Source: a virus
Lineage: Duplodnaviria; Heunggongvirae; Uroviricota; Caudoviricetes
Length of the DNA stretch: 22,046 bases
Virus record (IMG/VR): IMGVR_UViG_3300023707_000001
Reading direction: 5' to 3' (one strand)
In this document: piece after piece, positions 1,143 through 21,912 of the stretch
Layout: each line of letters starts with the position of its first letter
Numbering within the stretch: position 1 is the stretch's first letter
Translations under genes and position numbers: made by a program
Notes under the pieces: generated by a model
Databases searched by the model: none
Told to the model about the DNA's origin: nothing
Seen by the model: only the letters and a program-made list of their open reading frames with translations

Positions 1143-1364
1143 CTAAGCTGCGGCTTCGTGTTTGCAGTCGTCATCGAAGCTCATAATGGATGAATGCCTC
1201 GTCTCCCTTTGCATTTTTGCTGTCCGCCGGATTTCTTCCAGCCTTGCTTCGCATCGACGAAGCTTTGTCCCCTGAACAACAATGTAGGTCGAAAGGCAAA
1301 TTATCAAGAGCAACAATGAAACATTGAGCATTACTTCGAACTGTAAAACATTATCTGTAATCAC
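1143..1364 (-). CDS. Small single-pass membrane protein, 73 aa, ends -EAAA
   Basis: GTG start overlaps the upstream TGA; hydrophobic segment VMLNVSLLLLIICLSTYIVV followed by a basic tail. Confidence 0.75.
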   Translation of the reverse strand: MITDNVLQFEVMLNVSLLLLIICLSTYIVVQGTKLRRCEARLEEIRRTAKMQRETRHSSIMSFDDDCKHEAAA

Positions 1365-2242
1365 GCAGCTAACCTCCGTTTTCTGTTTGTCAAATCCCAG
1401 GCTTCGTCAACCAAACCGTAACATCTGTCGATGTTATAGCTGTAACTCCTTGCCGGATAAATGCGGAAAATCTTGTCATACGGCAGTGTGACCGGTTTTT
1501 CCAGCTCGATTTCGAGCGGGCCGCCACCACCACTCCAGCTATCATAGAGCCCGCACATTGTCATGGTCGGGATGTAAATGTCCTTTTTATTCTGGACAAT
1601 GTCGATAAGCTGGCCAAGCGTAAAGGTCTTTAGGAATACCAGTGCCGGCATATGAGTCGACATATTTACCAGCTCCTGGAATACGCTATTTAAGAACCCG
1701 TTTTTCTTGTAAGTAGAGTTATCCGTATTTGCACACAAGAACTGCAAAAAGTCTTCTTTGCTATATCCCTGAGTTTCTGCCAGCCACAGAAGAGAAGCCT
1801 TCTCTGTCTCTTCAGGTATGTCGTCCGGGTCGTTAATCCATTCCACTCTGCCGTTGTAGTGGGGATACATTGCATTGCTGACAAAATCATAGTCGCTGTC
1901 GCCCGTATCCACATAAATGTCCACGCGTACTCTCTGCTGGAGGAAGTGCTCGGTTGGATAAATAACATCGAGATTATCCCGAATGCAATCTTCGACATCG
2001 TCCAGGTCTTCACCTGCCAATGCAGGAATTTCCTCCATGGCATTTTCAGCAATTTCTTTATACTCAATGCCATCGTAGAGGCCGTACGCATAATACATCT
2101 TTTCATTGAAGGCCGTTCTCGGGTCTTTATCTTCCAGAATTTCACGAATTGTGTTATCCTGCAGACAATCGTTACGGTCTGCGTACAATTCGTAGCCATG
2201 CGGATATTTAAGCTTCAGCCAATTTTTAATCAGCTCTTCCAT
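1361..2242 (-). CDS. Conserved-type hypothetical protein, 293 aa, acidic, ends -RLAA
   Basis: RBS AAGGAG; motifs VDTGDSDYDF, LLWLAETQGY and CGLYDSWSGGGGPLEIELEK recall an uncharacterised family from Clostridia/Bacillota mobile elements (recognition from memory, not searched). Confidence 0.85.
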   Translation of the reverse strand: MEELIKNWLKLKYPHGYELYADRNDCLQDNTIREILEDKDPRTAFNEKMYYAYGLYDGIEYKEIAENAMEEIPALAGEDLDDVEDCIRDNLDVIYPTEHFLQQRVRVDIYVDTGDSDYDFVSNAMYPHYNGRVEWINDPDDIPEETEKASLLWLAETQGYSKEDFLQFLCANTDNSTYKKNGFLNSVFQELVNMSTHMPALVFLKTFTLGQLIDIVQNKKDIYIPTMTMCGLYDSWSGGGGPLEIELEKPVTLPYDKIFRIYPARSYSYNIDRCYGLVDEAWDLTNRKRRLAA

Positions 2243-2269
2243 TGCCGTCTCCTTTCTTTTACCGGGATG

Positions 2270-2623
2270 TTACCAGTTCACATATTCTGTCCGCTCAGGA
2301 CTACTTTTTTCAAAATTGGCTCCTTGGATATCGGCGTGTCCAATAACGCGGATAATGGCATATTTTTTGTCATGCTCTTTGGCCTCATCTGCCAATTTTC
2401 TGTTACTGACAAAATGTACGAGGGGCCAGAAGCATAAATTGCTTTTTGCATAACTTATTTTTCCGCGCTTACTTACCTTTATAAGACTGTGGTCACTGCC
2501 TGTCCAATTTTCGTCTCCGGGCGAATTTTGTACCACCCAATAACCATTATGACGCTTAAAATATGCGCCGGATATTTCCACGATATCGCCCGATACAATT
2601 TTTCTGCCGGTTACGTCAATCAT
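2270..2623 (-). CDS. Hypothetical phage/MGE protein, 117 aa, with DxxGxxIxxGDIV N-terminal motif
   Basis: ATG overlaps the upstream TGA; IDVTGRKIVSGDIVEISGAYFK...SPGDENW...CFWP pattern typical of Bacillota phage proteins. Confidence 0.8.
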   Translation of the reverse strand: MIDVTGRKIVSGDIVEISGAYFKRHNGYWVVQNSPGDENWTGSDHSLIKVSKRGKISYAKSNLCFWPLVHFVSNRKLADEAKEHDKKYAIIRVIGHADIQGANFEKSSPERTEYVNW

Positions 2624-2991
2624 GCTGCCGCTTCCTCTCTGCCGTATGCACAGTTTTTCAGCTCATAAGTTCTTCTCAGGATTTCTTCAAAGGTCTTATC
2701 TGCGTACTTCGTTTCTTCGTTGCCATACTGATAGACCAGCTGATTATCCTGTTCAATGGACATCACTCGGCAAGCCGTATGACGCAGGCTGCTGTTAAAT
2801 GTCATGCCGTACTGCATAAAGACCGGGTTGCCCTTATCGTCCAGAATTGTTTCCGAATATTCCGGTGTGATATGAAAACCTCTCATATCCACCATTTCGT
2901 TAAATTTTTCCTCGCTCATCTGGCGTGTGTACAGTTTAAAATCACCACTGCCGTACGGGCGTTCCAAAGTTCTTACTACATATTTTCTCAT
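2620..2991 (-). CDS. Hypothetical protein, 123 aa, ends -EEAAA
   Basis: ORF track; RBS GGAAG; ATGA overlap with next gene. Confidence 0.8.
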   Translation of the reverse strand: MRKYVVRTLERPYGSGDFKLYTRQMSEEKFNEMVDMRGFHITPEYSETILDDKGNPVFMQYGMTFNSSLRHTACRVMSIEQDNQLVYQYGNEETKYADKTFEEILRRTYELKNCAYGREEAAA

Positions 2992-3040
2992 CTTGCATCA
3001 ACTTCCCTTCCAAAACATGCGTACCTCTTTCCTTTTAAAG

Positions 3041-3745
3041 TTACGCTACATACTTCTTGCGGCCTTTTGTAATTAACCCGCAAGCCTTAGCCAAAGCGTC
3101 ATATTTTCCCTTAATCGCAAGATATTTGCGTTTCCATTCCTTACGTGCATAATCTTCGCTGCCGACTTTGCACTTAAGCCCGCAATTTTCTGCGTAAAGC
3201 TCCTCGGCTTTTTTCTTGAGCTGTTCGTTTTCTGCCTTGAGCTGGTTTACTTCTTTCACCCGCTCAATTAACTTATTCGCATTGCTCTGAAAGCTTTCGC
3301 TCATTCGGTCGTTTGATTCCTGGAGCTCTCTGTGCTTAATCTGTAAAAGCCCCAAATCCTTCTGCGCATCCTTCAACCGTTCTTTATCACCATGTCCGGA
3401 GGCGATTACTCTATCTTTGGATGCAATCTCGCATTCCAAGTCATGAATCCTGCTCCAAAGGTTTTCTGCACCTTCACTGCTCATGGCAACCATATCATCA
3501 AAGATTTTTAGCACCTGTGTAGCTTCACTGCTAAGTTCACCAATCTGGGTGTTGAGTTCAGTCATCTGCTTAATCAAAGACCGACTCTTCTCATCCGTGT
3601 TTCTTACCTGGCCGGCAACCATCATTGCCCGCCGCACACTGTTACTCAACTCACGCTTATTGTCATTAAAACATTCACTGTAAACCGTACCAACTGCTGC
3701 GGTTATCAATGCAATCGCTTCGCTGCGAGTAATTTCCTTTGGCAT
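3041..3745 (-). CDS. Coiled-coil hypothetical protein, 234 aa
   Basis: RBS GGGGAG; long heptad-like E/K/L-rich stretches; ends -YVA. Confidence 0.85.
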   Translation of the reverse strand: MPKEITRSEAIALITAAVGTVYSECFNDNKRELSNSVRRAMMVAGQVRNTDEKSRSLIKQMTELNTQIGELSSEATQVLKIFDDMVAMSSEGAENLWSRIHDLECEIASKDRVIASGHGDKERLKDAQKDLGLLQIKHRELQESNDRMSESFQSNANKLIERVKEVNQLKAENEQLKKKAEELYAENCGLKCKVGSEDYARKEWKRKYLAIKGKYDALAKACGLITKGRKKYVA

Positions 3746-3774
3746 TTCAATCTCCCCTATTTTTTATTCACTTT

Positions 3775-3960
3775 TTATGCCTGCCATTCCTGGCCTTCGC
3801 CATATCCCAGGTCTTTCCTGACCTTGCTGATATAGTTGTTGATTTCGTGGTATACCTGTCTGCTTTCTCGTTCCTTTTTCCGCTTACCACGTTTCTGAAT
3901 ATGTGATACCGGCTGAATGCGGTAAGTAAGCCGCTTTAAATTCTTAACGATATCAAGCAT
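3775..3960 (-). CDS. Small basic hypothetical protein, 61 aa
   Basis: ORF track 3775..3981; AGGAAGGT precedes the ATG at 3960 (MLDIVK); ends -WQA. Confidence 0.7.
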   Translation of the reverse strand: MLDIVKNLKRLTYRIQPVSHIQKRGKRKKERESRQVYHEINNYISKVRKDLGYGEGQEWQA

Positions 3961-3977
3961 TTTTACCTTCCTTTCTA

Positions 3978-4736
3978 TCAATCTTCAAGCTGGATAACGC
4001 CTTTTCCATGAATCCAGTCTTTTGTTTCTTTGAATCTCTGCACAATCTCTCTGAGTTCTTTTCTGTGCTTACGCACGATGTCCAGTCTATTTTCCTTTAA
4101 GACCTCTTCAATATGCCGAATGGTTGTTCTATATGCCCACGTCAGCGTTTTTCCTGTTTTAAGCATCTGCGGAATAAAGTCTGTCTCATCATACCAGTCA
4201 ATTGAGTTTCTAATAACATCAATGGGATAACTCTTTTTCTTGTAGCTTGCTTTCGTGCACTGCTTCAAAGTGCGGCCGATAACGGCATGCTTATTCCAAA
4301 AGATGAAACATCCTTGGTCATCCAGACGTTTTGGTTCATCCTTCGTTAGGATATCTTCATCCTTCACCTGTTCCTGCAACAGCTTAATTGCTGTACACAT
4401 TACGTCCGCGATATGAACGCGTTTTGTGTAAGCAAAGTCTTTTACCCACTTCCACTGCTCTTCGTCTGCCCAGAAAGTCTGTCGTTTTGCACTCTCCGGA
4501 CCACAAATCTTAATCTCCGTTTTTTCTTTTTTGAGCTTTTCGTTTTCCTTTTTCAGTTCACAATATTCTTGGGCGCTTTTAAAAACCATTTCATTTAGGA
4601 TATCAATTTCCGCCTGATAAGCACTTTTTACGGTTGTATAGGCTTCCAGATCCAAGCTGTCTGCCATCTCCATAATCGCTTTGTCAAGTTCTAAAATTTC
4701 ATTCGGAAGTTTACCCTGAACTATACAATAATCCAT
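3978..4736 (-). CDS. 252-aa protein with central ribbon-helix-helix-like DNA-binding motif
   Basis: Start reassigned to ATG 4736 (RBS GAGG, 1 nt after upstream TGA). KRQTFWADEEQWKWVKDFAYTKRVHIADVMCTAIKLL fits the beta-alpha-alpha RHH pattern. Confidence 0.75.
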   Translation of the reverse strand: MDYCIVQGKLPNEILELDKAIMEMADSLDLEAYTTVKSAYQAEIDILNEMVFKSAQEYCELKKENEKLKKEKTEIKICGPESAKRQTFWADEEQWKWVKDFAYTKRVHIADVMCTAIKLLQEQVKDEDILTKDEPKRLDDQGCFIFWNKHAVIGRTLKQCTKASYKKKSYPIDVIRNSIDWYDETDFIPQMLKTGKTLTWAYRTTIRHIEEVLKENRLDIVRKHRKELREIVQRFKETKDWIHGKGVIQLED

Positions 4737-4737
4737 T

Positions 4738-5175
4738 TCATTTTCCTCTTTTATGTCTCCAGTATCTTTTTTCACAAACGGTACTGCAAAATTTTCTACG
4801 TTTATCAAACTTGTTAGTAACACTAACGGTTTTTCTGCATTGAGCACATGTAAACTCACGCAGCACGACACCTTCTTCACACAGATATTTATTCTTGCGA
4901 TAGAAGTCGATGCTGCGCGGTTTCTGTATTAAAATGTCAATCTCTTTCCATTTGAACTTTCGTTCTCGGAGTTCTTTTATTTTTTCTACCAATGCGCGAA
5001 CCTTTTTGGCCTGTGCATCGGCTTCACGGCTGCGCCTATTCGCTGCGCGGACAGCTTTAGCCTGAATATTTCTTTGTCTTTTGGCGGTCTTTGCCGCCTG
5101 CTCTCTTCTTTTATCTTCTTTTTCTTTTGCGCTACTCCAATATACGGATGGAGTGGTGATTTTCCATGTGGCCAA
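4738..5175 (-). CDS. Basic protein, 145 aa, with HTH-like segment and C-terminal CxxC...CSxxC zinc finger
   Basis: CAQCRKTVSVTNKFDKRRKFCSTVCEKRYWRH preceded by KIKELRERKFKWKEI; arrangement common in Bacillota phage regulators. TTG start abuts the upstream TAA. Confidence 0.75.
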   Translation of the reverse strand: MATWKITTPSVYWSSAKEKEDKRREQAAKTAKRQRNIQAKAVRAANRRSREADAQAKKVRALVEKIKELRERKFKWKEIDILIQKPRSIDFYRKNKYLCEEGVVLREFTCAQCRKTVSVTNKFDKRRKFCSTVCEKRYWRHKRGK

Positions 5176-5373
5176 TTAACTTACCCACCCATTTATTTCG
5201 CCCATTTCATCTGTTACGGCTTTGATTTTATGGTAAATCTTATGCAGCTTTCGGCTCTGCTCCTTTAACTCCTCCAACTGGCAAAGTTTGAGGTATAGGT
5301 GCCATGCTTCATGGCCGGTAAGCGTCATATCTTTTGCCTCCATAAGCCTGTCCGTTAAATCTTCATATCTCAT
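5176..5373 (-). CDS. Small helical hypothetical protein, 65 aa
   Basis: ORF track 5176..5478; perfect GGAGGT RBS precedes the ATG at 5373 (MRYEDL). Confidence 0.75.
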   Translation of the reverse strand: MRYEDLTDRLMEAKDMTLTGHEAWHLYLKLCQLEELKEQSRKLHKIYHKIKAVTDEMGEINGWVS

Positions 5374-5392
5374 GCCTACCTCCATTTTTCCA

Positions 5393-6689
5393 TCAAGATG
5401 TTTTCTTGGCTTTACATCCTCTTTTGCGTAAAGCCCCCATTGCACCTTCAACACTATCTCCTTTTTTGAGCCTTGCATATAGCGCTGGCATGCTTACCTG
5501 ACATTCAGGCATAGCAGCCAATTCGGTGACTGTGTAGCTGGCACCGTTATACCGATACACTTTATTGCCCTTTGGACCACTACGGTCAGGGAGGCGACTA
5601 ATAGCTTCTTCTGCACATTCAGTTTTTAGTCTCTTATACAACACTTGTTGCTGTACTTTGCATTCTGGCAATTCTGCAAGTTCTTTGATTGAATAATACC
5701 GCCCTTTGTATTCGTATGTTTTTCCTTCTCGTGGCAGTGTAAGCGCTTTTTCTACCGCCATTCCATTCCGGAGTCTGTCTCTTAAGGTCTTTACGCATAC
5801 TTTACACTCAGGTAATTTGGCAAGCTCACTTACAGTCAACAGTTTTCCATGATATCTATACTTTTCTCCGCGCTTTACTTTTAATGCTTCTTCGACGCTT
5901 AATCCCCTTTGGTTGATTCTACTACAAAGAGTGTTGTATTGCTGTACTTCACATTCCGGCAAGGCCAATAGCTCTCTTAATGTGTATTCCTTACCTTTAT
6001 ATGTGTATTTTTTTGCAGTACGTCCTAATAACATTCCTTTTTCTCGTGCCATTTGCATACGCTCTGCCCCTGACAAAGGTTTGGTTGTGATAGCTTTTTC
6101 TACATCCCATCCTCCATTTTTAATCCTGGAGGTAAGTAGGTCTGCACTCACTACACATTCTGGTAACTGGGAAAGTTCCTTCATTGTGTAGTCTTTTCCC
6201 TTGTACATTACACGGAATCGCATTTCCCGGCGTACGCCGGGAAGAACCGGCGTATTCAAAGCTTCTTCAATACTCCAGCCATCAAACAAGCGCTTACCGA
6301 TTGTGTTATAGCTTAATGAGCTATCCTTGGCCATCTGATTAATTTCGTGACGGGTACAAAGTCCTTTTTTTATTTCATACACTTTTGTGTTAGTATATGG
6401 TTTTTCTATAATCTCCTCTACAGTCTTTCCTTCATCAATCCGTTTCCATATAAGGTGTGTGCTAATTCCAGTCTCTTTTGATAGCTGTGATACAGAAACC
6501 ATTTTTCCGTTATACTCAAGCTTAAAACCGCGCCTTTTAACATCTCTGAGTTGAGGCGTGTTAATAGCTTTTTTCAACGTCCCAGCCTTTTTTTAAACGG
6601 GATTCGAGTGCTTTCTTACTGCATTTAGCAAGCTTCGCTAATTCACCAAAACGGTATTCCTTACCTTTATACAAATACTTCTTTGCCAC
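5393..6689 (-). CDS. Tandem-repeat HTH-like DNA-binding protein (8 repeats, about 431 aa if restored), split by one extra A in an A6 run at 6569-6574
   Basis: Track ORF 5393..6577 has 7 repeats YxGKxYTxxELxxLPEC..V...L..R...G..VEEA. An upstream 42-aa ORF 6561..6689 (GTG, RBS GAAAGGTG) encodes an eighth, KKYLYKGKEYRFGELAKLAKCSKKALESRLKKGWDVEK, that joins AINTP in the +1 frame. The unit resembles the DNA-binding tail of phage HNH endonucleases; no nuclease domain is present. Confidence 0.8.
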
Positions 6690-6723
6690 TTTTACTTACA
6701 CCTTTCTCAGAAGCTGTATACTC

Positions 6724-7506
6724 TCACAGTGATACACTTACTATATCCTGACTATCAAAGATGCTCTTTTCATGTTCTTCCTTGTCTGTTTTTACGGCTG
6801 TAATAGGAATCGTGGCCTCATCTTTAACACAAACGCTACGAATCCAATCCAAAGAACTTAGCGCATCATGAATTTCTGTTGCGTCAGCATCTTCATCCAC
6901 TACAATGGACAAAGTTACAACTTTATCTTTCCGCCCCGTAAAAGCTTTCTCGCAGCATTCCATAAACTCCGCTGCATTAACATGGAAATCGCTCAAATTA
7001 TTCACAAGCTCATCGATTTCAGCTTCCGGGTACTCGGTAAGGACGCTTTCTTCTCTTAGCTTCGCCTCATGATATTTCCTATGGATAAACCCTTTGAGTA
7101 AAGAAATGTTTGTTTTGTAGATGTAAGTATAGGTATACAGAACTAAAGATAATACATCTCTCATCATGTTATCCAGTTGCGTACCGTTTTCCTCATCTTC
7201 ATCGGGGGCATGGTATGCCATATTTAATGCAGTATACCCGCCTTTTTCTTCCAAAAGGACTGGAATTCCTACTGTCATAAGGATTTTTATCAAAGTTTTG
7301 TTGCCGATGAGCTTATCATACGCAGCCTCATCCCAAAGGAGTTTTTCGGCTGTATAATTGGCGGCTTCTTGAAGTATATCGTCAATTTCCATGTCATCTT
7401 TCAGTTCTACATCGTAGAGAACTGCGTCTCGAAGAGCTTGGTAAGCGCGGTCTCTTCCAATATAGGGCATGGCCGTAATGCATAATTTTCTCTGCGCCTC
7501 TGTCAT
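6724..7506 (-). CDS. Acidic hypothetical protein, 260 aa
   Basis: RBS GGAGGGAG; ORF track. Confidence 0.85.
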   Translation of the reverse strand: MTEAQRKLCITAMPYIGRDRAYQALRDAVLYDVELKDDMEIDDILQEAANYTAEKLLWDEAAYDKLIGNKTLIKILMTVGIPVLLEEKGGYTALNMAYHAPDEDEENGTQLDNMMRDVLSLVLYTYTYIYKTNISLLKGFIHRKYHEAKLREESVLTEYPEAEIDELVNNLSDFHVNAAEFMECCEKAFTGRKDKVVTLSIVVDEDADATEIHDALSSLDWIRSVCVKDEATIPITAVKTDKEEHEKSIFDSQDIVSVSL

Positions 7507-7521
7507 TGTCTTTCTCCCTCC

Positions 7522-7878
7522 TTATTTACATTTTTTCCAGTAGTACACGACAATTTCTTCGCCGGCGTCTACCATAATCTGGCCGCGCGCATTTTCACGG
7601 TCGTAAAGCCACGGATTTGCCTCCATGATACCTTCCTTGAATTCATTGTGTTCGCGGATGCTGTAGGTATTCTTCTGCATGTAGTATTCTACAATATCAT
7701 CCAGAGACTCTGCGTGGAAAATATTAGCTCGGTAGGTTTCCACACAGTAGATAAAATCTGCATGATTCGCCTTAATGACACCACGCATTTCTGCATGGGA
7801 TATAACTTCTCCTGCGCTCGCTACGCTCGCGCTTGCAAGAACGATTGCGCCTAAAATGCCTAAAATCTTTTTCTTCAA
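7522..7878 (-). CDS. Secreted or membrane-anchored LysM-like protein, 118 aa
   Basis: TTG start with AGGAG RBS; signal-peptide-like MKKKILGILGAIVLASASVASA; AESLDDIVEYY...MEANPWL...VDAGEEIVV matches the LysM beta-alpha-alpha-beta spacing. Confidence 0.65.
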   Translation of the reverse strand: MKKKILGILGAIVLASASVASAGEVISHAEMRGVIKANHADFIYCVETYRANIFHAESLDDIVEYYMQKNTYSIREHNEFKEGIMEANPWLYDRENARGQIMVDAGEEIVVYYWKKCK

Positions 7879-7905
7879 GGTTATTGACTCCTATTCTCTA
7901 TTTGC

Positions 7906-8082
7906 TTATGCTGCCGTATCCTTTTCGATAACGATTGCATTCTCGTCATCCAGGAACACTACGCAGCCTGTACGCTTACTGCCATCTTTTTTGTACCAGC
8001 CATATGCATTCTCTTTGGACACCGAGATGACATATTCATCCGGCATATGTTCCAGAATCTCACGTAAGTCTCTTACTTTCAT
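7906..8082 (-). CDS. Small phage-type protein, 58 aa, MKVRDLREILEHMPD..., ends -DTAA
   Basis: Not in ORF track; hand-translated; RBS AAGGTG; fills the gap between neighbours. Confidence 0.8.
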   Translation of the reverse strand: MKVRDLREILEHMPDEYVISVSKENAYGWYKKDGSKRTGCVVFLDDENAIVIEKDTAA

Positions 8083-8102
8083 ATTCTATCACCTTTTTCG
8101 CC

Positions 8103-8699
8103 TTAATACCAGATATTTTTATATTTCTGGTATTCTTCCTTACGTTTTTTCTCTTCCTCTTCCGCCATTCTTACAGCCTTTCGGCTTTCTTCCATCATAG
8201 TTATCTTATGAATTGCCTGAACGTCACGATAAGCATCGTAATATCTGTCCATCGGCGTTTCTCTAAGCTCCCGCCCACAGAACTCTCTTTCCACATAACT
8301 GTTTATGGCGTCCAGCTGTTCCTGTGGCGTGCCGTATGAATCAGAAGTGTTGTGGTTCTCCCGCAGACCAGCTAACTTGCATTTTCTTATGATAAAATTC
8401 CTGAAGCCATCAAGAGTTTCTTTATACATACGCTCACCATAGAAAGAGACGCAAGTGTCAACCATTGCATTTGCAAGGACTGTCTCCTCACTCCGCGTGA
8501 ACATTCTTCCGTATGGTACAGCAACATATTTCGGGGTGCATCTTCCGTACAGTCTGTCCTCAAAGAAATCAATCTTTACTGGAGCGTCAGGAAAAGGACG
8601 GATAATACCTTCTTTGAGTTCATTCTTTGTTGGCTTTTTTGGTCTATTGATTCTTTCCGGGTCTATGCCAAGCAGCATACTCAAAATCGTATCAAGCAT
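8103..8699 (-). CDS. Hypothetical protein, 198 aa
   Basis: ORF track; RBS GAAGGGAAG. Confidence 0.8.
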   Translation of the reverse strand: MLDTILSMLLGIDPERINRPKKPTKNELKEGIIRPFPDAPVKIDFFEDRLYGRCTPKYVAVPYGRMFTRSEETVLANAMVDTCVSFYGERMYKETLDGFRNFIIRKCKLAGLRENHNTSDSYGTPQEQLDAINSYVEREFCGRELRETPMDRYYDAYRDVQAIHKITMMEESRKAVRMAEEEEKKRKEEYQKYKNIWY

Positions 8700-8717
8700 C
8701 TATTGACTTCCCTTCAC

Positions 8718-12836: not shown

Positions 12837-13253
12837 TTAAGCTACTGAAAATCTGCCGTCCTTCTTCTCTTTCTTAATCTGCCGGAGCTTATCCTTCATC
12901 TCATTTACAGTGGTAATCCAGCGCATTTCGTAATCGTACCCATGGGCTTTTAATACATACAGGGTATGGTCAATGCTTGACAGGGTAAGTTTTTCCAGCC
13001 AGACCATCTTTTCGGGCGGATAGTTATATATGTCTTCCAGGTTTTTACAGCCTACTGCATAAAACCTTTTGCTGAGCTCTGGAGCAAGCGTTGGGTTGTT
13101 CTGCATTTTTTGCTTCAGGCTGCCACTTAACTTCGGCAGGTTACTGGCAAGCTGTTTCTTTGCGAGCAGCTTATCAATTTCGGCGCGCAGATTTTTAAGC
13201 GATTCTATATCCATACTCTCCAGATTGATATTAACAGTTAATGTATAAGACAT
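12837..13253 (-). CDS. Second alpha-CTD-like protein, 138 aa, with N-terminal coiled helix
   Basis: GCKNLEDIYNYPPEKMVWLEKL...LKAHGYDYEMRW aligns by eye with GFLDIKDIYDTPPAELMRLPKM...LNICGYDYEGHW of 8929..9492; RBS AGGAG. Confidence 0.65.
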   Translation of the reverse strand: MSYTLTVNINLESMDIESLKNLRAEIDKLLAKKQLASNLPKLSGSLKQKMQNNPTLAPELSKRFYAVGCKNLEDIYNYPPEKMVWLEKLTLSSIDHTLYVLKAHGYDYEMRWITTVNEMKDKLRQIKKEKKDGRFSVA

Positions 13254-14512: not shown

Positions 14513-14596
14513 CAGTATACACCTTCCTTGCTTATCTCTCTATCTCTTTATTCAATCTCTCTAATCTTACTAACGTATTCTTAATCTACCTAACAT

Positions 14597-14626
14597 AATA
14601 TACACGGATAACCACCTCATTGTCAA
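14597..14626 (-). promoter_or_regulatory. sigma70/sigmaA-type promoter driving the left gene block
   Basis: Minus strand TTGACA (14626-14621), 18-nt spacer, TATATT (14602-14597); AT-rich upstream; about 85 nt before the ATG at 14512. Confidence 0.75.
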
Positions 14627-14746
14627 GTAAGGGGTGTATAAAAATCTCAAGAACTTGTAATTAAGGAAAAATAAATCGGTATTAGGGTACTTCTCCTTAC
14701 CGTTCAGAACAATCTTTTACATGCCTCGGTGCAACCTCGCTCCAAA

Positions 14747-15314
14747 AAATTTGTCAAAAACTTACCTCTTTTTCTTTACGCTCTAACTCGTCTACCTCCA
14801 GCATTATCAAGGGGATAACTCGGATACTTGCCTGCGGCAACGGACTCTACATAGCATGCTACAACAAGGGGAAGGATAGAGGAACAAGGAACACGATAGA
14901 GGGGTAAAAGACACTATAATAATGGGGCGGACTAGGTACATCAATAGAATTAAAGCGATAATATAACGCTTTTTGAAAAACGGAGCTTGAATCGTACCTC
15001 ATCGAATCTCCCCTGTATGGGCCAAATTAGCCTCATATGAAGCTCCAATTTCCTTGTGGCACTTTTTAAAAATTATCCTGCTATCGTCGCGCTACGTTAA
15101 AGATAACGGGTGTAGCGGGCGTTTTGGAACTAACTTTTTACAAATGCCACTTCGAAAATCTGTATTTCAGATGTGTCTGGCGTTTTTGGTTTGCCTTCCG
15201 CAAATTTGTCCGCAAAATCCAGTTCAGAAATTTTGCTGGTGGACTGCAGTAAAAAATTTGTCCCGGAGTTTTCAAAAATCTGCACCGCGAAAAATTTGTC
15301 TTGCAAAATTTGTC
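14747..15314 (+). repeat. AAATTTGTC 9-mer x5 (14747, 15202, 15254, 15292, 15306), all same orientation
   Basis: Read directly; related AAAATCTG variants lie between them. Confidence 0.8.
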
Positions 15315-15517
15315 CAAAGTGTAAACCTGTCTTTCAAAAAGTATTATTTTCCCTATAGGGGAGAATATATCTTTTTCTTGAATTTCGTTCACTTGTATTT
15401 TTATTGTAATACTTGTGTACTCTTTCTATGGACTTGGTTTACAGATTTATATTTTATTAATTTTGCGCTTCGCGTTTTGGTTTTTGCTCCTGGGTATGTC
15501 AGGCAAAGATACGTGTG

Positions 15518-16346
15518 CTGCGCTCACAAGGTTCAAGTAACCGTTCTTAGCACACTTGTTGTATTGCGGGCTCGCTTACGCTCGCCCGCCTGAAGCCCTA
15601 AATTATATGGCTCTTTATGTGTATATTGGTATATATATATCGAACAGCACTCCTATATATGGGGAGTGTGTAGTATATATATGTATATCCTGTTAGAGGT
15701 GTGTGTGAATGATATAATTAATATATGCATAAAGAACGATACAATTTGCGCGCCGGAGGTCGCGCGCGGGTAGTAGCGGGCGGAGTATGTGAATACTCTT
15801 TCTCCCCTTGCGGTATAAAGAGGGGAATATATATGGGGATATATATTTGTATATACACGAGAAGGGAGAAATGGGATAATTCTGTATCCAGTAGATAGGG
15901 AATTTACTTGGGACAGAATGATGTAACGCCCTTTTGTAGTGTTTAACGGGGCTCGCTTCGCTCGCCCCTTGATAAGGACATGACTTAATATCTTTTATTT
16001 TATTTAAGATATTGTCATTGTCTTATCTTTTTTGATTTAATATACTTTGAACTACTTTTACTGTTCCTGTAAAAGTTTGTATCTTAAATCTTTTTTCTTT
16101 CTTGTTTTCTTTTTTGTCTTATTTTATATACGCTCGCTACGCTCGCTTTTTTAAACAAGCTCTATTTATTTCTTTTTTTTAGCTTGTTATTATGCTCGCT
16201 CGCTTCGCTCGCTCGCTTGTATATATAAATAAGCTCTTTATGTTCTTTATCTTAACCTTTATGTTTGTCTTATCTTTGTTTTGCTGATAAGACTGCGCTC
16301 ATAAGGTTTTGCTAACCGAATACAGTCTATCTGCGCTCATAAGGTT
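15518..16346 (+). repeat. 16-bp direct repeat CTGCGCTCAYAAGGTT x3 (15518-15533, 16293-16308, 16331-16346)
   Basis: Two identical copies 38 bp apart and one with a single mismatch. Confidence 0.9.
15566..16216 (-). repeat. Four GCGAGC-GNA/GNNA-GCGAGC ssDNA hairpins (15566-15589, 15948-15968, 16132-16146, 16194-16216)
   Basis: Plus strand shows GCTCGC direct repeats; the minus strand can fold each with tandem G.A pairs and loops GTAA, GAA, GTA, GAA. Confidence 0.8.
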
Positions 16347-16349
16347 AAG

Positions 16350-16628
16350 CTAAATCCCTGGAGCCAATTTAGCGGGCGGTGCCTTAATCCCTCCCGAGGG
16401 GTAGGTATGGGGACGGCCATGGATAAGTCCTGGGCGGAAATCCTTCGGGCACTTATCAGCCTTTTTACCCATGAGATAAGTAAGTGGTCTTTCTTCTTGT
16501 TTATGGGTGGGGAAGGGGCTGGTATTTTTACAGGCGTTTGTGACATAAGCTATGTTTCTTGAATATGTCATATTTCTGGAAGCGTTTGTTTTGTATAGCT
16601 TGCTTAAATATGTCACAATAGTTACCAT
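16350..16628 (-). CDS. Possible hypothetical protein, 92 aa (doubtful)
   Basis: AAGGAGTGAG upstream but spacing is long; sequence is not protein-family-like. Confidence 0.35.
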   Translation of the reverse strand: MVTIVTYLSKLYKTNASRNMTYSRNIAYVTNACKNTSPFPTHKQEERPLTYLMGKKADKCPKDFRPGLIHGRPHTYPSGGIKAPPAKLAPGI

Positions 16629-16667
16629 GGTGCTTATCTCACTCCTTTCGTAAGCATGAATTTCGGA

Positions 16668-16805
16668 TTAGGATTTACGGGCGCGCGCTTTTTGCTGTTC
16701 GCCTTTTAGTCTTCTGATTTCGCGCTCGTCCTTTTCAACTTCTATTTCGATAAACTGGTTCACTTCAGAACCTAACTCGAATAAGGCAAACAATAAAGCA
16801 AATAT
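16668..16805 (-). CDS. Possible 45-aa peptide with non-canonical ATA start (hydrophobic N-terminus, charged tail)
   Basis: AAGGAGG (16820-16814) lies 8 nt before an in-frame ATA; the track's 16901 start crosses a terminator. Confidence 0.45.
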   Translation of the reverse strand: MFALLFALFELGSEVNQFIEIEVEKDEREIRRLKGEQQKARARKS

Positions 16806-16830
16806 AACGGTATCCTCCTTTGAGTAACTT

Positions 16831-16868
16831 ATAAAAACAATCCGCCCGCCAAAAAAATAGCGGACGGA
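16831..16868 (-). terminator. Intrinsic terminator closing the right gene block
   Basis: Minus strand UCCGUCCGCU/GGCGGGCGGA 10-bp stem (two G.U) followed by UUGUUUUUAU, just after the 16883 stop. Confidence 0.8.
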
Positions 16869-16882
16869 CGTTTCTTTACTTA

Positions 16883-17617
16883 TCAGGCACAAGCAGTCCA
16901 ATCAGACTTGGAACTGCCTTTGGAGCCGAAGAGCAGACCGCCAATGTCGGAGCCCAGACCCTTTACTTCATTCCAGGCATCCTGAACATCCTTGTTGCGG
17001 GAAAGCTCACGGGCGGCGGCACGGCCATTGCGGATAGTCGTTGCAAGCGTTGCGGCGCCAACAGAAACTGCGGCGGTGGCCACAACACGGCCCGTGGTCA
17101 TACCAGCATTTACGACTGCACCAGCCGTCGGTGCAAGTGCGCCATTCAGGGCATAGTCAGCAACATCCGTTGCAAACGTGGTGACGGCTTTTGCTACCGC
17201 CTGCGTACGGTCAGACCAGAGCTTGATGTTCGCTTTGCGCTGGATAAGCTGTAAATCCTCTGCGGAAACACCCGAGAGGATAACCGTCTTACCGCCATCG
17301 CTGGTTTCATAGCTGTCTTCATAGCCGAGGCTGTCGAGCAAATCCAGCAGGTTGTTCGCTTCCTGACGGGATTCAAACTTCTTGCTGAACTTATCCTGCA
17401 GAACCTCTCCCGTTTCATTGTCAATCGTCGTCACATTCTCTTTACTCATCTTTTCTTCCTCCTGTACGTCTTTTGTAATCTCTGCGTCCTCGATTTTTTC
17501 CTGTGGCGGTTCTTCTTTCAGGTCTGGACCAAGCATTGCTTCCAGAGTACCGCCCAGGAAATCGAGAACAGGGTCATTTGCCCCCTGGGCAGTTGTTTTG
17601 TCTTTTTCGGTTGCCAT
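16883..17617 (-). CDS. 244-aa protein, acidic N-terminal half and Ala/Gly/Thr/Val-rich C-terminal helices, ends -ACA
   Basis: RBS GAGGAGGG; strongly biased codon use. Confidence 0.9.
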   Translation of the reverse strand: MATEKDKTTAQGANDPVLDFLGGTLEAMLGPDLKEEPPQEKIEDAEITKDVQEEEKMSKENVTTIDNETGEVLQDKFSKKFESRQEANNLLDLLDSLGYEDSYETSDGGKTVILSGVSAEDLQLIQRKANIKLWSDRTQAVAKAVTTFATDVADYALNGALAPTAGAVVNAGMTTGRVVATAAVSVGAATLATTIRNGRAAARELSRNKDVQDAWNEVKGLGSDIGGLLFGSKGSSKSDWTACA

Positions 17618-17649
17618 ACAAAATCCCTCCTCAAGGGGCTGTTACCTTA

Positions 17650-17943
17650 TCAAGCGGCAATCGGCATAACCGCGTCTTCGATAAGGTGGTAATCATAACT
17701 GACCTCTACCCTGTACAGGGAACGGAGAGCGAAACGGCTCTTTGTGCACGGTGTACGAAGCAGGTGCATAACCTCGGGGTCAATCAGACCATATGCGTCA
17801 ATGCAGGTCTGCGGAATTTTGGCGGAAATATTTACCCAGCCATTCGTAAGGTTCTTACGAAGCGTCCAGGTTACTTTGGAATTGGCGCGGTTGTTGGATT
17901 TCGGGAATACGATATATTTCGGGCATACTTTATTCATAATCAT
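17650..17943 (-). CDS. Hypothetical protein, about 97 aa, ends -PIAA
   Basis: Track 17650..18015; AAGGA/GGAAAG precede ATGs at 17943 and 17937. Confidence 0.7.
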   Translation of the reverse strand: MIMNKVCPKYIVFPKSNNRANSKVTWTLRKNLTNGWVNISAKIPQTCIDAYGLIDPEVMHLLRTPCTKSRFALRSLYRVEVSYDYHLIEDAVMPIAA

Positions 17944-18015
17944 TTTTCTTTCCGTCCTTTCTTGACGACAAAAACTGGACTGCCCGCCTTGAGCAGTCCA
18001 GCCTGTTTCATTCAC

Positions 18016-18960
18016 TTATGCGGCAAAGTCGAAACCTGCGGATTCTTCCTGCGGTTCTGCAACAGCCTCCATGTCGCCGACGAATTCTTCATTGCGGTTC
18101 TTGGCGTCCTCAATGATAATCGTCTGGTTGGCGATGGACAAGAGGTCACGGGCGGTTTCCTGTTCGGAGCCTGCCTTGATTTCCCGCTCTACCACGAGGT
18201 TGCCGTTAGCCTTAACCAGCTTATGCTTGCCATTGAGCTTGAAGCCCGAAGCAAGCGTGATGCGGTAGTTGCGCCCTTTGTGCATGGTGGAAGCCAAACC
18301 TTTCACGAAGGTCAGTTCCATGTTTTCCATGTCGAGCGGAAGGTTGTAGCGGGTTTCCCAGCCAAAGATGGAGCTGTGGCCCATAACGCGTACGGACTTA
18401 AACTTCTGTTTTGCGTCCTGGAGCATTTTGAATACCGTGCCTGCCGTTGCCATGTAGGCCTGACCATATTTCGCGCTGTTGCGTTCATCGTTGATATGTT
18501 CCTTTTCTGCAGGCGTCAGCACGGTGTTGTCACCCTTGTTGATGCGGGAGAGCATACCACTAAGACGGCGGGCCTCAAAGTCGTTGACATAAAGAACCAG
18601 ATGTTCCTTGCCATAGGTTTCGGCCTTGGCAATAGCCTTGCTGGCGCCGATAAGCGTAGCAACGGGAGCCGACAGACGCTCACCAGATTTGGTATTTACT
18701 GCAGGGCAAACCAGCGCGGGTTCTACGATGTTCTCTGCGATATCGCCTGCTACGAAGCCAACATAACCACGGGAGGAAACAACCGACATGATGACGGTGT
18801 TGTTCTTGAGCTCTTCTTCGCGTTTTGCGCGGGCCTTGTCAGTCAGGATATTTACTGCTTCCATCTGCTTGGAAAGACCTGCGAGCATTGCGGCGCGACG
18901 GGATACCGGTGCCTGAGCCTGTTCTTTTACGATTGCGTTTACATTTACATTGGTTGCCAT
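18016..18960 (-). CDS. 314-aa protein, possible catalytically degenerate RNase H-like fold, ends -DFAA
   Basis: Start reassigned to ATG 18960 (RBS AAGGAG). CDS itself is well supported; the fold call rests on ATLIGASKAIAKAETYGKEHLVLYVND and KFKSVRVMGHS only. Confidence 0.85.
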   Translation of the reverse strand: MATNVNVNAIVKEQAQAPVSRRAAMLAGLSKQMEAVNILTDKARAKREEELKNNTVIMSVVSSRGYVGFVAGDIAENIVEPALVCPAVNTKSGERLSAPVATLIGASKAIAKAETYGKEHLVLYVNDFEARRLSGMLSRINKGDNTVLTPAEKEHINDERNSAKYGQAYMATAGTVFKMLQDAKQKFKSVRVMGHSSIFGWETRYNLPLDMENMELTFVKGLASTMHKGRNYRITLASGFKLNGKHKLVKANGNLVVEREIKAGSEQETARDLLSIANQTIIIEDAKNRNEEFVGDMEAVAEPQEESAGFDFAA

Positions 18961-19124
18961 AATTATCATTCTCCTTTTCTTGCCCCGCTCATTTATTAGC
19001 ATTTCGCTTTGGCGGGATACATGTTAACATTTCTGGACGCGCTGTCCTTCTGGGTAGGGTATACGATGAAAGGATAATCCAGCTGTAGCTGTAGGACGGG
19101 ACAGGTTGACAGGCATGAATTATT

Positions 19125-19153
19125 AGTATATAGCCTGTATGTCCGAGGTCCAA
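19125..19153 (-). promoter_or_regulatory. sigmaA-like promoter upstream of the 18960 gene
   Basis: TTGGAC (19153-19148), 17-nt spacer, TATACT (19130-19125); A/T tract at UP-element distance (19163-19177). Confidence 0.55.
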
Positions 19154-19162
19154 ATCCCTCAT

Positions 19163-19193
19163 AAAAAACAAGACAATCGTCTGCGGAGCAGAC
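19163..19193 (+). promoter_or_regulatory. Hairpin element A: AAAAAACAAGACAATC-GTCTGC-GGA-GCAGAC
   Basis: One of three intergenic copies with conserved flank and covarying 6-bp stem; function inferred. Confidence 0.7.
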
Positions 19194-19321
19194 AAGCTCT
19201 TGATGAGAGGGTAGCCGTGGCTGTAAGATTTAAGCCTTTCGTTGTATGCTGAAAAGTGATAGGGGGCACTCTTTAGCACACAACGAAGAGCTTAATGCTC
19301 CTCGTTTGCCAAGGTGGGGAT

Positions 19322-19585
19322 TTATGCGGCGACTTTAGCCTCCTCGCTAAGAGCCACGAGGTCGTTGAAAGTCGTGTTATCGGTAAAGAAGATGGTTTCA
19401 CCATAGTCGGTTTTCAGGCGGGCGGCGATAACCAGCTCGCCATCACGGGTATCCTTGCGGATGGTATCCAGCTTGTCATGGCTGACACTGTGGAAGCTGT
19501 CGCACAAAGTAGTCAGTCTGTGCGCATTGATGTGACGGTGATACGTACCAGGAAATAACGTTTCGATATCACTGCAAAATAACAT
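19322..19585 (-). CDS. Hypothetical protein, 87 aa, ends -KVAA
   Basis: RBS AAGGAG with 9-nt spacer. Confidence 0.85.
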   Translation of the reverse strand: MLFCSDIETLFPGTYHRHINAHRLTTLCDSFHSVSHDKLDTIRKDTRDGELVIAARLKTDYGETIFFTDNTTFNDLVALSEEAKVAA

Positions 19586-19611
19586 GATGATTAACTCCTT
19601 TACTGTTCAAT

Positions 19612-19683
19612 CAATAAAAAATAGGCTTCCCAGCGAGAAAGTGAAAAGCATGGGGGATGTTTTCAGGGGATTACCGGGAAGCC
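19612..19683 (-). terminator. Long stem-loop plus U-tract in the leader of the 19585 gene (attenuator or small-RNA terminator candidate)
   Basis: GGCUUCCC/GGGAAGCC outer stem, inner UGAAAACAU/AUGCUUUUCA hairpin, then UAUUUUUUAUU. Confidence 0.5.
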
Positions 19684-19684
19684 C

Positions 19685-19717
19685 AAAATAAACAAGACAA
19701 TATCGCCCGAAGGGCGA
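19685..19717 (+). promoter_or_regulatory. Hairpin element B: AAAATAAACAAGACAATA-TCGCCC-GAA-GGGCGA
   Basis: Same flank and register as A and C. Confidence 0.75.
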
Positions 19718-19791
19718 AGAGGGTGTATCGACGGAGACGGCACTATCCAGACAAGAGGATATTATCCTGCGGCGTCTCTATCGAGAATTTA

Positions 19792-19959
19792 TCACGCGGC
19801 GATTTTGTAGCCGGCGTATTCTTTTTCTTCCGCAAGCCGTTCGTAATCACGGCGGGTCATTTTCCGCTTTGCGCGGTCACGGATACGACGCTCCTGCCCC
19901 TCGCTGTGCATACGATTGTGTTTGCGGATTTTTTCAATATTTGCATTGGTATTCAACAT
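19792..19959 (-). CDS. Small very basic protein, 55 aa, ends -KIAA
   Basis: Track 19792..20031; AAGGCAGG precedes the ATG at 19959 (MLNTNANIEK). Confidence 0.75.
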   Translation of the reverse strand: MLNTNANIEKIRKHNRMHSEGQERRIRDRAKRKMTRRDYERLAEEKEYAGYKIAA

Positions 19960-19981
19960 GATTAACAACCTGCCTTTCTTA

Positions 19982-20155
19982 TCAGCGCATATTCTTAGCC
20001 ACGGCATAGAATACGACTGCACCGGTTGCAATCACGTCTACTGCCTGGCCCATTACGTTTCTGGCTTCCTGGCTTATCTTCTGCCTTCGCGCCAGAATAC
20101 TTTTATCGTCTGCCGCAATACCATTTCCAAAATACCAGTTCAACAGTTTCTTCAT
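19982..20155 (-). CDS. Small protein, 57 aa (MKKLLNWYFGNG...VVFYAVAKNMR), hydrophobic C-terminal helix
   Basis: Not in ORF track; RBS AAGGGAG; hand-translated. Confidence 0.7.
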   Translation of the reverse strand: MKKLLNWYFGNGIAADDKSILARRQKISQEARNVMGQAVDVIATGAVVFYAVAKNMR

Positions 20156-20214
20156 ATTCCCAATCTCCCTTTATCATTTATCTTGTTATTCCGTAAGGCG
20201 ACAGACTGCTCGGG

Positions 20215-20631
20215 TCAGGCCGCCTTGTTATTCATTTCATCGATGTCTTCTTTGGAAACGAAACTTCCAAAGGGCTTTTTCTCGCTTGTCTCCTGTGCCT
20301 TCGGCTTCTCCTTGTACTTGGCACATACCGACTTGAGCTCGCCTTCCAGGATGTTGAGCGTGCTCTTGCCCAGCTCGAACAGTGCTTTTGCCGTTGCACC
20401 CAGACTCTTGACGAGGTGGCTGTTGCGGATTGCGATATCCATGATGTCGCAAGTGGAGAACTCATTGAAGGCCAGCGTAACCGTAGCTTCGCCGCGCATA
20501 TGGTTTACGGAGAAGCGGACAGGGCCTGTTACCTCGTAGTGGTCATCGCGGCCGAAGGCCTGGTTGTAGGCCTTGTGCAGTTTCTCTATGGTTGCCATTT
20601 CGTTTTTCGTGAAGTTCATTTTAATTTCCAT
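20215..20631 (-). CDS. Hypothetical protein, 138 aa, ends -NKAA
   Basis: Start reassigned to ATG 20631 (RBS AAGGAG). Confidence 0.85.
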   Translation of the reverse strand: MEIKMNFTKNEMATIEKLHKAYNQAFGRDDHYEVTGPVRFSVNHMRGEATVTLAFNEFSTCDIMDIAIRNSHLVKSLGATAKALFELGKSTLNILEGELKSVCAKYKEKPKAQETSEKKPFGSFVSKEDIDEMNNKAA

Positions 20632-20678
20632 GGTTTTCAATCTCCTTTTTTCAACAAACAACAAACAAAACAAAAAAA

Positions 20679-20822
20679 TTAAGCCGCTTTGCGGGCGGCT
20701 TCTTCCTGGGTATTCGGTTTTGCCTTGCGGGCTACAAGCTCCAAGGCTTTCTTGATTGCTTCGGCCCGTTCAAACCGGGTACGAGTGTCGCCCCATTCAA
20801 TCGAGATGTACGTCTTTTTCAT
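20679..20822 (-). CDS. Small basic protein, 47 aa (MKKTYISIEWGD...EEAARKAA)
   Basis: Not in ORF track; RBS AAGGAG with 8-nt spacer; hand-translated. Confidence 0.75.
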   Translation of the reverse strand: MKKTYISIEWGDTRTRFERAEAIKKALELVARKAKPNTQEEAARKAA

Positions 20823-20861
20823 AATAAACGCTCCTTTCACAATGCGTCCTTAAACCATCTC

Positions 20862-20894
20862 AAAATAAACAAGACAATATCGCGCGAAGCGCGA
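20862..20894 (+). promoter_or_regulatory. Hairpin element C: AAAATAAACAAGACAATA-TCGCGC-GAA-GCGCGA
   Basis: Same flank and register as A and B; contains GCGAAGC. Confidence 0.75.
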
Positions 20895-20901
20895 AATGGC
20901 A

Positions 20902-21054
20902 TTACCTTCTATAGCCGTAGGGTTTCTTCTTGGGCTCACTGCTCGTGAACAGGCCCTTAATGCAATCTATCACAAGGGAAATGATTCCCCATGCGATGAG
21001 CGCGGCAACAGAACAAAAGGCGGCAAAGAACATGCCAACAATGATAATTTCCAT
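20902..21054 (-). CDS. Small membrane protein, 50 aa (MEIIIVGMFFAAFCSVAALIAWGIISLVIDC...KKKPYGYRR)
   Basis: Not in ORF track; GGAGG with 7-nt spacer; long hydrophobic helix plus basic tail. Confidence 0.8.
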   Translation of the reverse strand: MEIIIVGMFFAAFCSVAALIAWGIISLVIDCIKGLFTSSEPKKKPYGYRR

Positions 21055-21068
21055 TTGATAACCTCCTC

Positions 21069-21461
21069 TTATGAAGCACGGCGTGCAGTGGGCCGGCGAA
21101 GGGATTCGAAGATGGCATGAACAGTCATGCGGGCGGCCATGCGCGCGTCATCACACGGTACAGCCTTACCGCCGGCAAATACAGTAAGCGGACTCCCCTG
21201 CGGTTTATCTTCCGCATCGAAGTCCGTTACCATGCGGCCGTTTTTCATCAGCCAGCAGTATGCAGTTTCTCCCGTAAGCACATCTTTATACTTAACGGAA
21301 CAGCCATGTTGGGATACCACCTTCCAGCGGTCAAAGGAACCGGGCAGGTATTTATGGATAACCATTTCAAACGCCAGCGTTGCAAACTTAACGGGCGTTA
21401 CTTCCCAGTTTGGGACTACCACAACGTTGTCACGGATGATTTTGAGTGCATACTTTTTCAT
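21069..21461 (-). CDS. Hypothetical protein, 130 aa
   Basis: RBS AAGGAAG; ORF track. Confidence 0.8.
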   Translation of the reverse strand: MKKYALKIIRDNVVVVPNWEVTPVKFATLAFEMVIHKYLPGSFDRWKVVSQHGCSVKYKDVLTGETAYCWLMKNGRMVTDFDAEDKPQGSPLTVFAGGKAVPCDDARMAARMTVHAIFESLRRPTARRAS

Positions 21462-21480
21462 AGCAAATCTTCCTTTCTGA

Positions 21481-21912
21481 TTACGCTACACTCGTTTCCT
21501 CTGGATAAATAGGCTCTCCGCTCCATGTTTTCCAGAGGTACGGATATTCCTTGCGGATTTTGGACATAGGCAGACTGATATGCCGGAAGTCCTTTTGGCG
21601 GACTCCCTTATAGGCAGACCATACCGTGTGGTTGATACCAAAGTATTCCAGTAGCCGGCTCATCCTTTCTGTCATGTAAAATGACATGTCCGTAGCGACG
21701 TATTCACGGAGCCAGCCACTAAATTCCCTTGCGTCGAAACTTATGGCAAAGTGACCCACTTCAGTTTCTGCAATACTGTTTCCTGCAAACGTAGGCGCGC
21801 TACATTCATCCATCACTATATTGCATACTTCCAAAGCAAGTTCGGTGGAGCAGAGTCCTGTCATCGAGCCACGCTCTTCATTGAGTTTGTTTCTTAATTC
21901 ATCTTTTGTCAT
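21481..21912 (-). CDS. Hypothetical protein, 143 aa, ends -TSVA
   Basis: Start reassigned to ATG 21912 (RBS AAGGAG). Confidence 0.8.
   Translation of the reverse strand: MTKDELRNKLNEERGSMTGLCSTELALEVCNIVMDECSAPTFAGNSIAETEVGHFAISFDAREFSGWLREYVATDMSFYMTERMSRLLEYFGINHTVWSAYKGVRQKDFRHISLPMSKIRKEYPYLWKTWSGEPIYPEETSVA

Follow-up and report, generated by a model that had tools for sequence, protein, structure and literature searches.

Why should so many neighbouring, unrelated genes of one phage encode proteins that end in the same two residues? The question is raised by a 22,046-nt stretch of the Caudoviricetes record IMGVR_UViG_3300023707_000001 (which we denote G000), referred to here at its full length as the window, in which an initial annotation had remarked on a run of proteins ending in Ala-Ala (-AA). 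The window corresponds, as its reverse complement, to bases 157,106–179,151 of G000, a single virus contig of 235,547 bp with a G+C content of 44.5% that CheckV rates as 96% complete. We analysed the window and the genome around it together with two related IMG/VR contigs, G001 (211 kb) and G002 (224 kb), most of whose orthologues are 49–90% identical in protein to those of G000. Genes in G000 were called first by codon usage, and conservation was added later. The minus-strand half of this genome contains replication genes and very large structural genes, and the plus-strand half contains small genes, 13 tRNAs and a transfer-messenger RNA (tmRNA). We find that the -AA excess is independent of both DNA motifs and paralogy.

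All 11 proteins listed by the initial annotation do end in Ala-Ala (minus-strand stops at 1143, 1361, 2620, 7906, 11080, 17650, 18016, 19322, 19792, 20215 and 20679), and a twelfth -AA gene, encoding a 742-amino-acid (aa) PcfJ-like protein, overlaps the left edge of the window with its stop outside. Five further x-Ala ends were also read correctly (YVA at 3041, WQA at 3775, SVA at 12837, ACA at 16883 and SVA at 21481), as was the count of six -AA genes among the 12 called in 16883–22046; the reported run of four consecutive -AA genes holds only if an unconserved open reading frame (ORF) at 18989–19279 is a non-gene. The chance expectation had been set at about 1% per gene from an alanine content near 10%. 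Alanine in fact accounts for 7.2% of residues and the internal AA dipeptide has a frequency of 0.56%, which lowers the figure to about 0.5% per gene. In the window 12 of 41 genes end in -AA (binomial P = 6 × 10−18), as do 18 of the 310 genes genome-wide (P = 2 × 10−13), so that AA is the commonest terminal dipeptide of G000, followed by VA. The -AA end is likewise the commonest in G001 (20/266 genes) and G002 (25/221), and across the three genomes, where internal AA frequencies range from 0.56 to 0.69%, the binomial P for the excess lies between 2 × 10−13 and 4 × 10−23. ORFs not called as genes end in -AA at a frequency of 0.34%.

The terminal codons differ from gene to gene, as had been noted, with all four alanine codons in use and no common DNA motif beyond GCN GCN stop. 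BLAST among the -AA proteins found no similarity of one to another, so they are not paralogues; across the three genomes they fall into about 36 unrelated, non-structural families. Pfam and PHROGs searches with ten -AA proteins of the window returned a single match, to phrog_23767, whose function is unknown. Control loci lack the excess: -AA ends were found for 1 of 648 ORFs in bacterial loci and 3 of 218 in helicase neighbourhoods of unrelated phages, both sets having been called with a cruder, length-greedy ORF caller that undercounts small genes (10/296 in G000) and was applied to control loci only, and for none of the 72 annotated genes in the early-type block of Bacillus phage BSP38.

The tails are distributed unevenly along the genome, and the programme that had been described as element-wide turns out to be regional. 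The -AA ends are confined to a block of G000 at 153–196 kb and to three replication or regulatory genes. None occurs among the roughly 90 genes of the structural module (about 37–140 kb), nor among some 75 small plus-strand ORFs at 210,000–235,547, which have no orthologues in G001 or G002 and whose neighbouring block is -AA-rich. Between 153 and 180.5 kb, 14 of 49 genes end in -AA, compared with 4 of 261 elsewhere (Fisher test, 2 × 10−9). Carriers outside the window include the C-terminal part of the DNA polymerase III alpha subunit (pol III alpha), an Ant/KilAC protein, PhoH, a Dda-like helicase and a Mor/helix-turn-helix-like protein; NrdG ends in -VA in G000 and in -AA in G001. In a 20-kb block of G002 that is absent from both G000 and G001, nine of approximately 14 genes end in -AA, among them those for GyrA, the two parts of a split GyrB, a RecA-like protein, ClpX and ClpP, and the Rad52-like gene adjoining it (203.4 kb) ends in -AA too. 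Because G002 is about 98% identical to G001 outside this block, G002 is either a mosaic genome or a chimeric assembly, the region concerned (203,415–219,476) comprising the Rad52-like, RecA-like, GyrA, split GyrB, ClpX and ClpP genes.

The initial annotation further took the -AA carriers to be first-wave proteins. Besides small early-type ORFans, however, replication enzymes carry -AA (pol III alpha, the Dda-like helicase and PhoH); early timing itself is not established, one strong sigma70-like promoter match heading the left gene block of the window and none the right. Promoter scans gave overall counts no higher than in shuffled sequence and yielded no temporal class, and the motif TATTGTCTTG has three occurrences, which is not above chance. 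Contigs from a metatranscriptome library cover the block at 99–100% identity; contigs cannot show transcription, hence we do not count them as evidence of expression.

Comparison of orthologues indicates what has been preserved. For the -AA proteins of G000, 15 orthologue pairs were compared (mean identity 69%); the dipeptide is kept in 13 and the residue at position −3 in just five. Where the protein ends otherwise, the last two residues agree in 66 of 128 pairs, although these pairs are more alike overall (mean identity 76%). Across 28 terminal alanine codons that could be compared, 11 differences are synonymous and one is non-synonymous (Ala to Val). The exchanges among orthologues are correspondingly narrow: AA replaces or is replaced by VA three times (RLAA/RRVA, KYVA/RKAA and GVA/MAA), and there is one MIA. 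Purifying selection at the protein level, maintaining a terminal Ala-Ala at the tip of otherwise variable tails, is therefore well supported, by orthologue conservation, synonymous codon turnover, the independence of the families and clean controls.

In two of the protein families that carry it, the ending is not shared by more distant homologues. The Dda-like helicase, encoded just outside the window, ends in WKD[IM]AA in kin of at least 72% identity (one ends in MIA); homologues at 55–61% identity have different ends, and a terminal Ala is absent from all 111 more distant ones. As the helicase carries -AA only in close kin, the two alanines were added within the clade and are not a family trait. 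The BSP38 homologue of the protein at 1361–2242 ends in KGNE. Such comparisons show the installation of -AA to be specific to the clade, a narrow group of uncultured jumbo phages from animal guts. The DNA of G000 is present in animal faeces metagenomes, and no cultured phage matches it at the DNA level: a search with the whole window against 50,697 phage records gave no match, and neither did tblastn with a 328-aa protein encoded at 18016–19002. Shine–Dalgarno cores lie upstream of 219 of the 310 genes, with AGGAG four times commoner on the coding strand, indicating that the host uses Shine–Dalgarno sites. Given this usage and distant homologues in Bacillus phages (the 1361–2242 protein has homologues of about 31% identity in Bacillus SPO1-like phages), the host is probably a Firmicute. 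An attempt to identify the host through the ClpX of G002 failed, its best bacterial matches (42–45% identity) being spread over Bacteroidales, Thermotogota and Bacilli.

The 328-aa protein provides a view of how one such tail is built. It has five metagenomic homologues only, and all seven known sequences end in an invariant F-A-A, preceded by a tail of about 30 residues that is variable, acidic and rich in indels. In an AlphaFold model, residues 302–328 have a predicted local distance difference test score (pLDDT) below 50 and no secondary structure, and the tail is predicted to be disordered. The core weakly resembles RNase H (Foldseek E = 3.5 × 10−4; TM-score on the target 0.56), a match from which, being so weak, we draw no functional claim. 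In the helicase, pol III alpha and NrdG, the Pfam domains stop 16–34 residues short of the C terminus.

ClpX is the best-documented bacterial reader of AA-COOH, and S41 and PDZ proteins are the usual readers of a free C terminus; no S41 peptidase, PDZ domain or Lon, these being possible alternative readers of a free end, was found in the three genomes. The tails end in the free Ala-Ala of a ClpX C-motif-1 degron, in which Val-Ala is tolerated, and the only swaps seen are to VA and IA. The phage tmRNA lies outside the window at 202,719–203,119 of G000 (Rfam RF00023, 90.7 bits against a gathering score of 47, model positions 1–374), and its tag, as read by ARAGORN, is DEVEYRLAA; the tag of G001 is DEAEYRLAA, and no tmRNA was found in G002. 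The tails are not products of trans-translation, as they are encoded in the genes themselves directly before ordinary stop codons, and they resemble the phage tag only in the last two residues and in a basic residue at position −4. Lys or Arg occupies −4 in 14 of the 36 tail families against a background of 12.5%, and the phage tag likewise has Arg there. Ends in LVA and in LAA are both strong ClpXP degrons. In an unbiased screen of C-terminal pentapeptides in Escherichia coli, 91% of the top 100 degrons, all of them ClpXP-dependent, ended in Ala-Ala; FKLVA was the best tag, and Arg was favoured at −4 (PMC10862746). Proteins of Bacillus subtilis that bear an ssrA tag or an RqcH poly-Ala tail are degraded in a Clp-dependent manner (PMC8373112). 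The G002 genome itself encodes adjacent ClpX and ClpP within its -AA-rich block, and in this ClpX the GYVG pore-1 and RKH loops, which contact the ssrA end, are kept, as is a CxxC..CxxC N terminus, with FGY where the E. coli protein has IGF.

On these grounds we favour, with a probability of roughly 55%, the interpretation that the -AA ends are built-in ssrA-like (ClpX C-motif-1) degrons through which ClpXP sets how long early, regulatory and replication proteins last. The interpretation is plausible because the tmRNA tag ends in YRLAA, Lys or Arg is frequent at −4, AA is exchanged with VA alone, the structural proteins are untagged, one tail is predicted to be disordered and, in one relative, the ClpXP genes lie within a block rich in -AA ends. 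The clade has installed Ala-Ala-COOH, and sometimes Val-Ala, on about 36 unrelated non-structural families: early-type ORFans, the Dda-like helicase, pol III alpha, PhoH, Ant-like and Mor-like regulators and NrdG and, in one relative, also gyrase, RecA-like and Rad52-like proteins, ClpX and ClpP. The tails could be read by host ClpXP in G000, the host protease being the candidate because the G000 record has no ClpXP of its own, and, in the relative that has ClpXP genes, by the enzyme of the host or by the phage's own; G001 encodes neither ClpX nor ClpP. Tagged proteins would then have a limited, protease-set lifetime, and the untagged virion proteins would stay stable. As the tmRNA of this lineage writes the same ending (YRLAA) onto stalled products, the lineage presumably works in cells where an -AA end is meaningful. 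The initial annotation had likewise proposed hard-coded ssrA-like degrons; the selection that this presupposes is well supported, and recognition by ClpX and degradation are what we infer.

Several observations weigh against this interpretation. Only 13 of the 36 tail families have a hydrophobic residue (I, F, L, V, M or Y) at −3; Ala is found there in six, and the remaining families have K, Q, E, D, S, T or H. Of the Ala-Ala-ending tags in the E. coli screen, 39% proved weak, and polar or small residues at −3 were disfavoured (PMC10862746). No ClpXP was found in the 235,547-bp G000 record with PF00574, TIGR00382, PF07724, tblastn with the G002 ClpX and ClpP or a six-frame search for the motif TSADPG, although the genes may lie in the 4% of the genome that the record lacks. 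Other ClpX-bearing huge phages that we sampled have no -AA enrichment next to clpX. In G002, ClpX and ClpP themselves end in -AA, and essential, long-acting enzymes (pol III alpha, helicase and gyrase) carry the ending, where a fast degron would hardly be expected. Disorder of the tail was predicted in the one protein modelled, and that model is of moderate quality (mean pLDDT 61). Finally, the clade is shallow, with orthologues at 49–90% identity, and conservation is therefore measured over limited divergence.

The tagging of stable enzymes and of ClpX and ClpP themselves would be accommodated if the x-A-A carboxylate were a docking signal without proteolysis: a short linear motif for a common partner, whether a hub protein of phage or host, or an unfoldase in the role of remodeller or translocase, that serves localisation, assembly or delivery. 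A flexible tail with an invariant terminal tripeptide has the layout of other C-terminal docking peptides, and jumbo-phage ClpX and ClpA have been proposed to act as translocases or assembly chaperones (PMC7824862). We nonetheless regard docking as unlikely: our searches found no candidate receptor, the genomes encode no PDZ or S41 protein, and the reader of AA-COOH best documented in bacteria is ClpX. The degron-like features would also apply if the -AA proteins worked in bulk, occupying host ClpXP as competitive substrates or decoys and so protecting other phage proteins or blunting ClpXP-dependent host responses. Many carriers are small ORFans clustered in one block, and the phage tmRNA would add more -LAA substrates; a decoy, however, needs one abundant protein rather than about 36 selected families that include replication enzymes and regulators, and the relative adds ClpXP capacity rather than blocking it, for which reasons we give protease jamming little credence. 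Decoy or saturation effects and timed turnover, both of which the initial annotation had entertained, cannot be separated by sequence. That the ending has no signalling function, and stems from a bias of the lineage in the context of translation termination or from a neutral accident in the history of the clade, would suit a trait limited to a shallow clade with heterogeneous residues upstream of -AA, but is very improbable in view of the 11 synonymous changes against one conservative change in the terminal codons, the variation of −3 while −1 and −2 stay fixed, the absence of -AA from the roughly 90 structural genes and roughly 75 small ORFs served by the same termination machinery, and the lack of bias in non-gene ORFs.

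Returning to the degron interpretation, a broader form of it can be put forward tentatively, as a possibility that we rate below even odds. The templated ending x-[K/R]-x-Ala-Ala might constitute a proteome-wide ‘lifetime code’ that marks early, regulatory and replication proteins for ClpXP, with the machinery supplied in modules: a tmRNA of their own in some members of the clade and, in others, a ClpX–ClpP pair of their own that could be orthogonal and self-limiting. Turnover would then be a programmed layer alongside transcriptional timing. Although ClpXP degrons are among the best-understood degradation signals, natural ClpXP substrates are known one at a time. Should the degron interpretation hold, the ssrA ending would serve a phage as one common, selectable tag for dozens of unrelated proteins, withheld from those of the virion, and post-translational timing would emerge as a general layer of phage gene regulation. 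The roughly 36 tails would also form a natural library of graded strength for working out degron rules in Firmicute-type hosts, and there would be a reason for the tmRNA, ClpX and ClpP genes found here and there among huge phages.

The features of the window are collected in Table 1.

Table 1 Tailed genes and candidate regulatory signals of the window, in window coordinates
Feature	Position	Strand	Comment
5′ part of 742-aa PcfJ-like gene, ending YKEAA	1–892	−	PF14284 PcfJ, 3.6e-12; stop outside window, at genome 180,488
73-aa ORF ending HEAAA	1143–1364	−	G001 orthologue ends SIAA
293-aa protein ending RRLAA	1361–2242	−	phrog_23767, function unknown; G001 orthologue RRVA
123-aa ORFan ending EEAAA	2620–2991	−	G001 orthologue ends QETAA
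234-aa coiled-coil-like protein ending KYVA	3041–3745	−	G001 orthologue RKAA (VA/AA swap)
68-aa ORF ending WQA	3775–3981	−	
58-aa ORF ending KDTAA	7906–8082	−	No orthologue found
192-aa ORFan ending EKQAA	11080–11658	−	
138-aa ORF ending FSVA	12837–13253	−	
Strong sigma70-like promoter match (TTGACA-18-TATATT, 11/12)	14597–14626	−	Upstream of left gene block
Intrinsic-terminator-like hairpin (12 pairs and T run)	16840–16869	−	Closes right block
244-aa protein ending WTACA	16883–17617	−	Orthologues WTTCA, -CA kept
121-aa ORFan ending MPIAA	17650–18015	−	Orthologues MPVAA
328-aa protein, invariant F-A-A end	18016–19002	−	7 sequences
87-aa ORFan ending AKVAA	19322–19585	−	Orthologues AEAAA
79-aa ORFan ending YKIAA	19792–20031	−	Orthologues identical end
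152-aa ORFan ending NNKAA	20215–20673	−	Orthologues (49% identical) DKEAA
53-aa ORFan ending ARKAA	20679–20840	−	Orthologues identical end
158-aa protein ending TSVA	21481–21957	−	Orthologues NGVA, -VA kept

Beyond these features, the two gene blocks of the window are separated by about 1.8 kb of low G+C content that is nearly gene-free (14513–16350) and holds the 14597–14626 promoter match. Three intergenic, G+C-rich hairpins with 3-nt loops lie on the minus strand at 19177–19195, 19703–19717 and 20880–20894, each followed by (T/G)ATTGTCTTG; in two public sequencing runs the contigs part from the window sequence precisely at 19176, so that one of these hairpins may mark a strain breakpoint. 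On the minus strand at 5393–6689 is a 394-aa protein with about four internal repeats of some 42 aa, and an adjacent 42-aa ORF (6561–6689) is one more copy of the repeat (45–49% identity). Elsewhere in G000, a HEARO RNA (RF02033, 83.7 bits) at 208,163–208,426 adjoins a 422-aa ORF (208,467–209,735) of which a second copy, 84% identical, lies at 70,722–71,990; an IscB/OMEGA-type mobile element is thus present twice. Among unrelated IMG/VR phages of about 36% G+C (L119, L120, L122 and L125–L133), 13–21 kb of sequence contains just 3–11 ORFs of at least 60 aa under translation table 11, a sparseness that suggests a reassigned stop codon.

Measured against known systems, the components are familiar: degrons of the C-motif-1 type are established, as are tmRNAs in phages and, in the occasional jumbo phage, genes for ClpX and ClpP. 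It is the proteome-wide pattern that we did not find described, a full-text literature search having returned no account of a phage in which Ala-Ala is systematically placed at the end of non-structural proteins. Known phage substrates of ClpXP include lambda O, the Mu transposase MuA, Mu repressor variants and P1 Phd, which resemble the present case in being replication or regulatory proteins whose level or activity is set by host ClpXP through terminal motifs. Each is a lone substrate with a motif of another kind (N-terminal, or the C-motif-2 RRKKAI), and to our knowledge none belongs to a tag shared across many families.

The ssrA tag and natural ClpX C-motif-1 degrons end in LAA-COOH, with LVA and AAV variants. 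In common with them, the phage proteins have a free Ala-Ala or Val-Ala at the C terminus, on a tail that is probably flexible, and Arg or Lys at −4 is tolerated or favoured (PMC10862746), the phage tmRNA tag itself ending in YRLAA. In contrast to the ssrA tag, the tails are encoded in genes rather than added by trans-translation, and what they share is the last two residues only, Leu occupying −3 in two of 36 families. In contrast to natural C-motif-1 substrates, which are scattered single proteins, they occur on about 6–11% of the proteome, and would be degraded on our interpretation. A survey of tmRNA, ClpP and ClpX genes in jumbo phages (Iyer et al. 2021, PMC7824862) offers a parallel to the clpX–clpP pair of G002 and the tmRNAs of G000 and G001, although it draws no link from such genes to the C termini of phage proteins. 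The RqcH/RqcP poly-Ala tails of B. subtilis are a further parallel, as C-terminal alanines there form a Clp-dependent degron in the Firmicutes, the probable host phylum (PMC8373112). Those tails, however, are non-templated additions of ribosome-associated quality control to failed products, whereas the phage Ala pair is templated, on full-length and conserved proteins.

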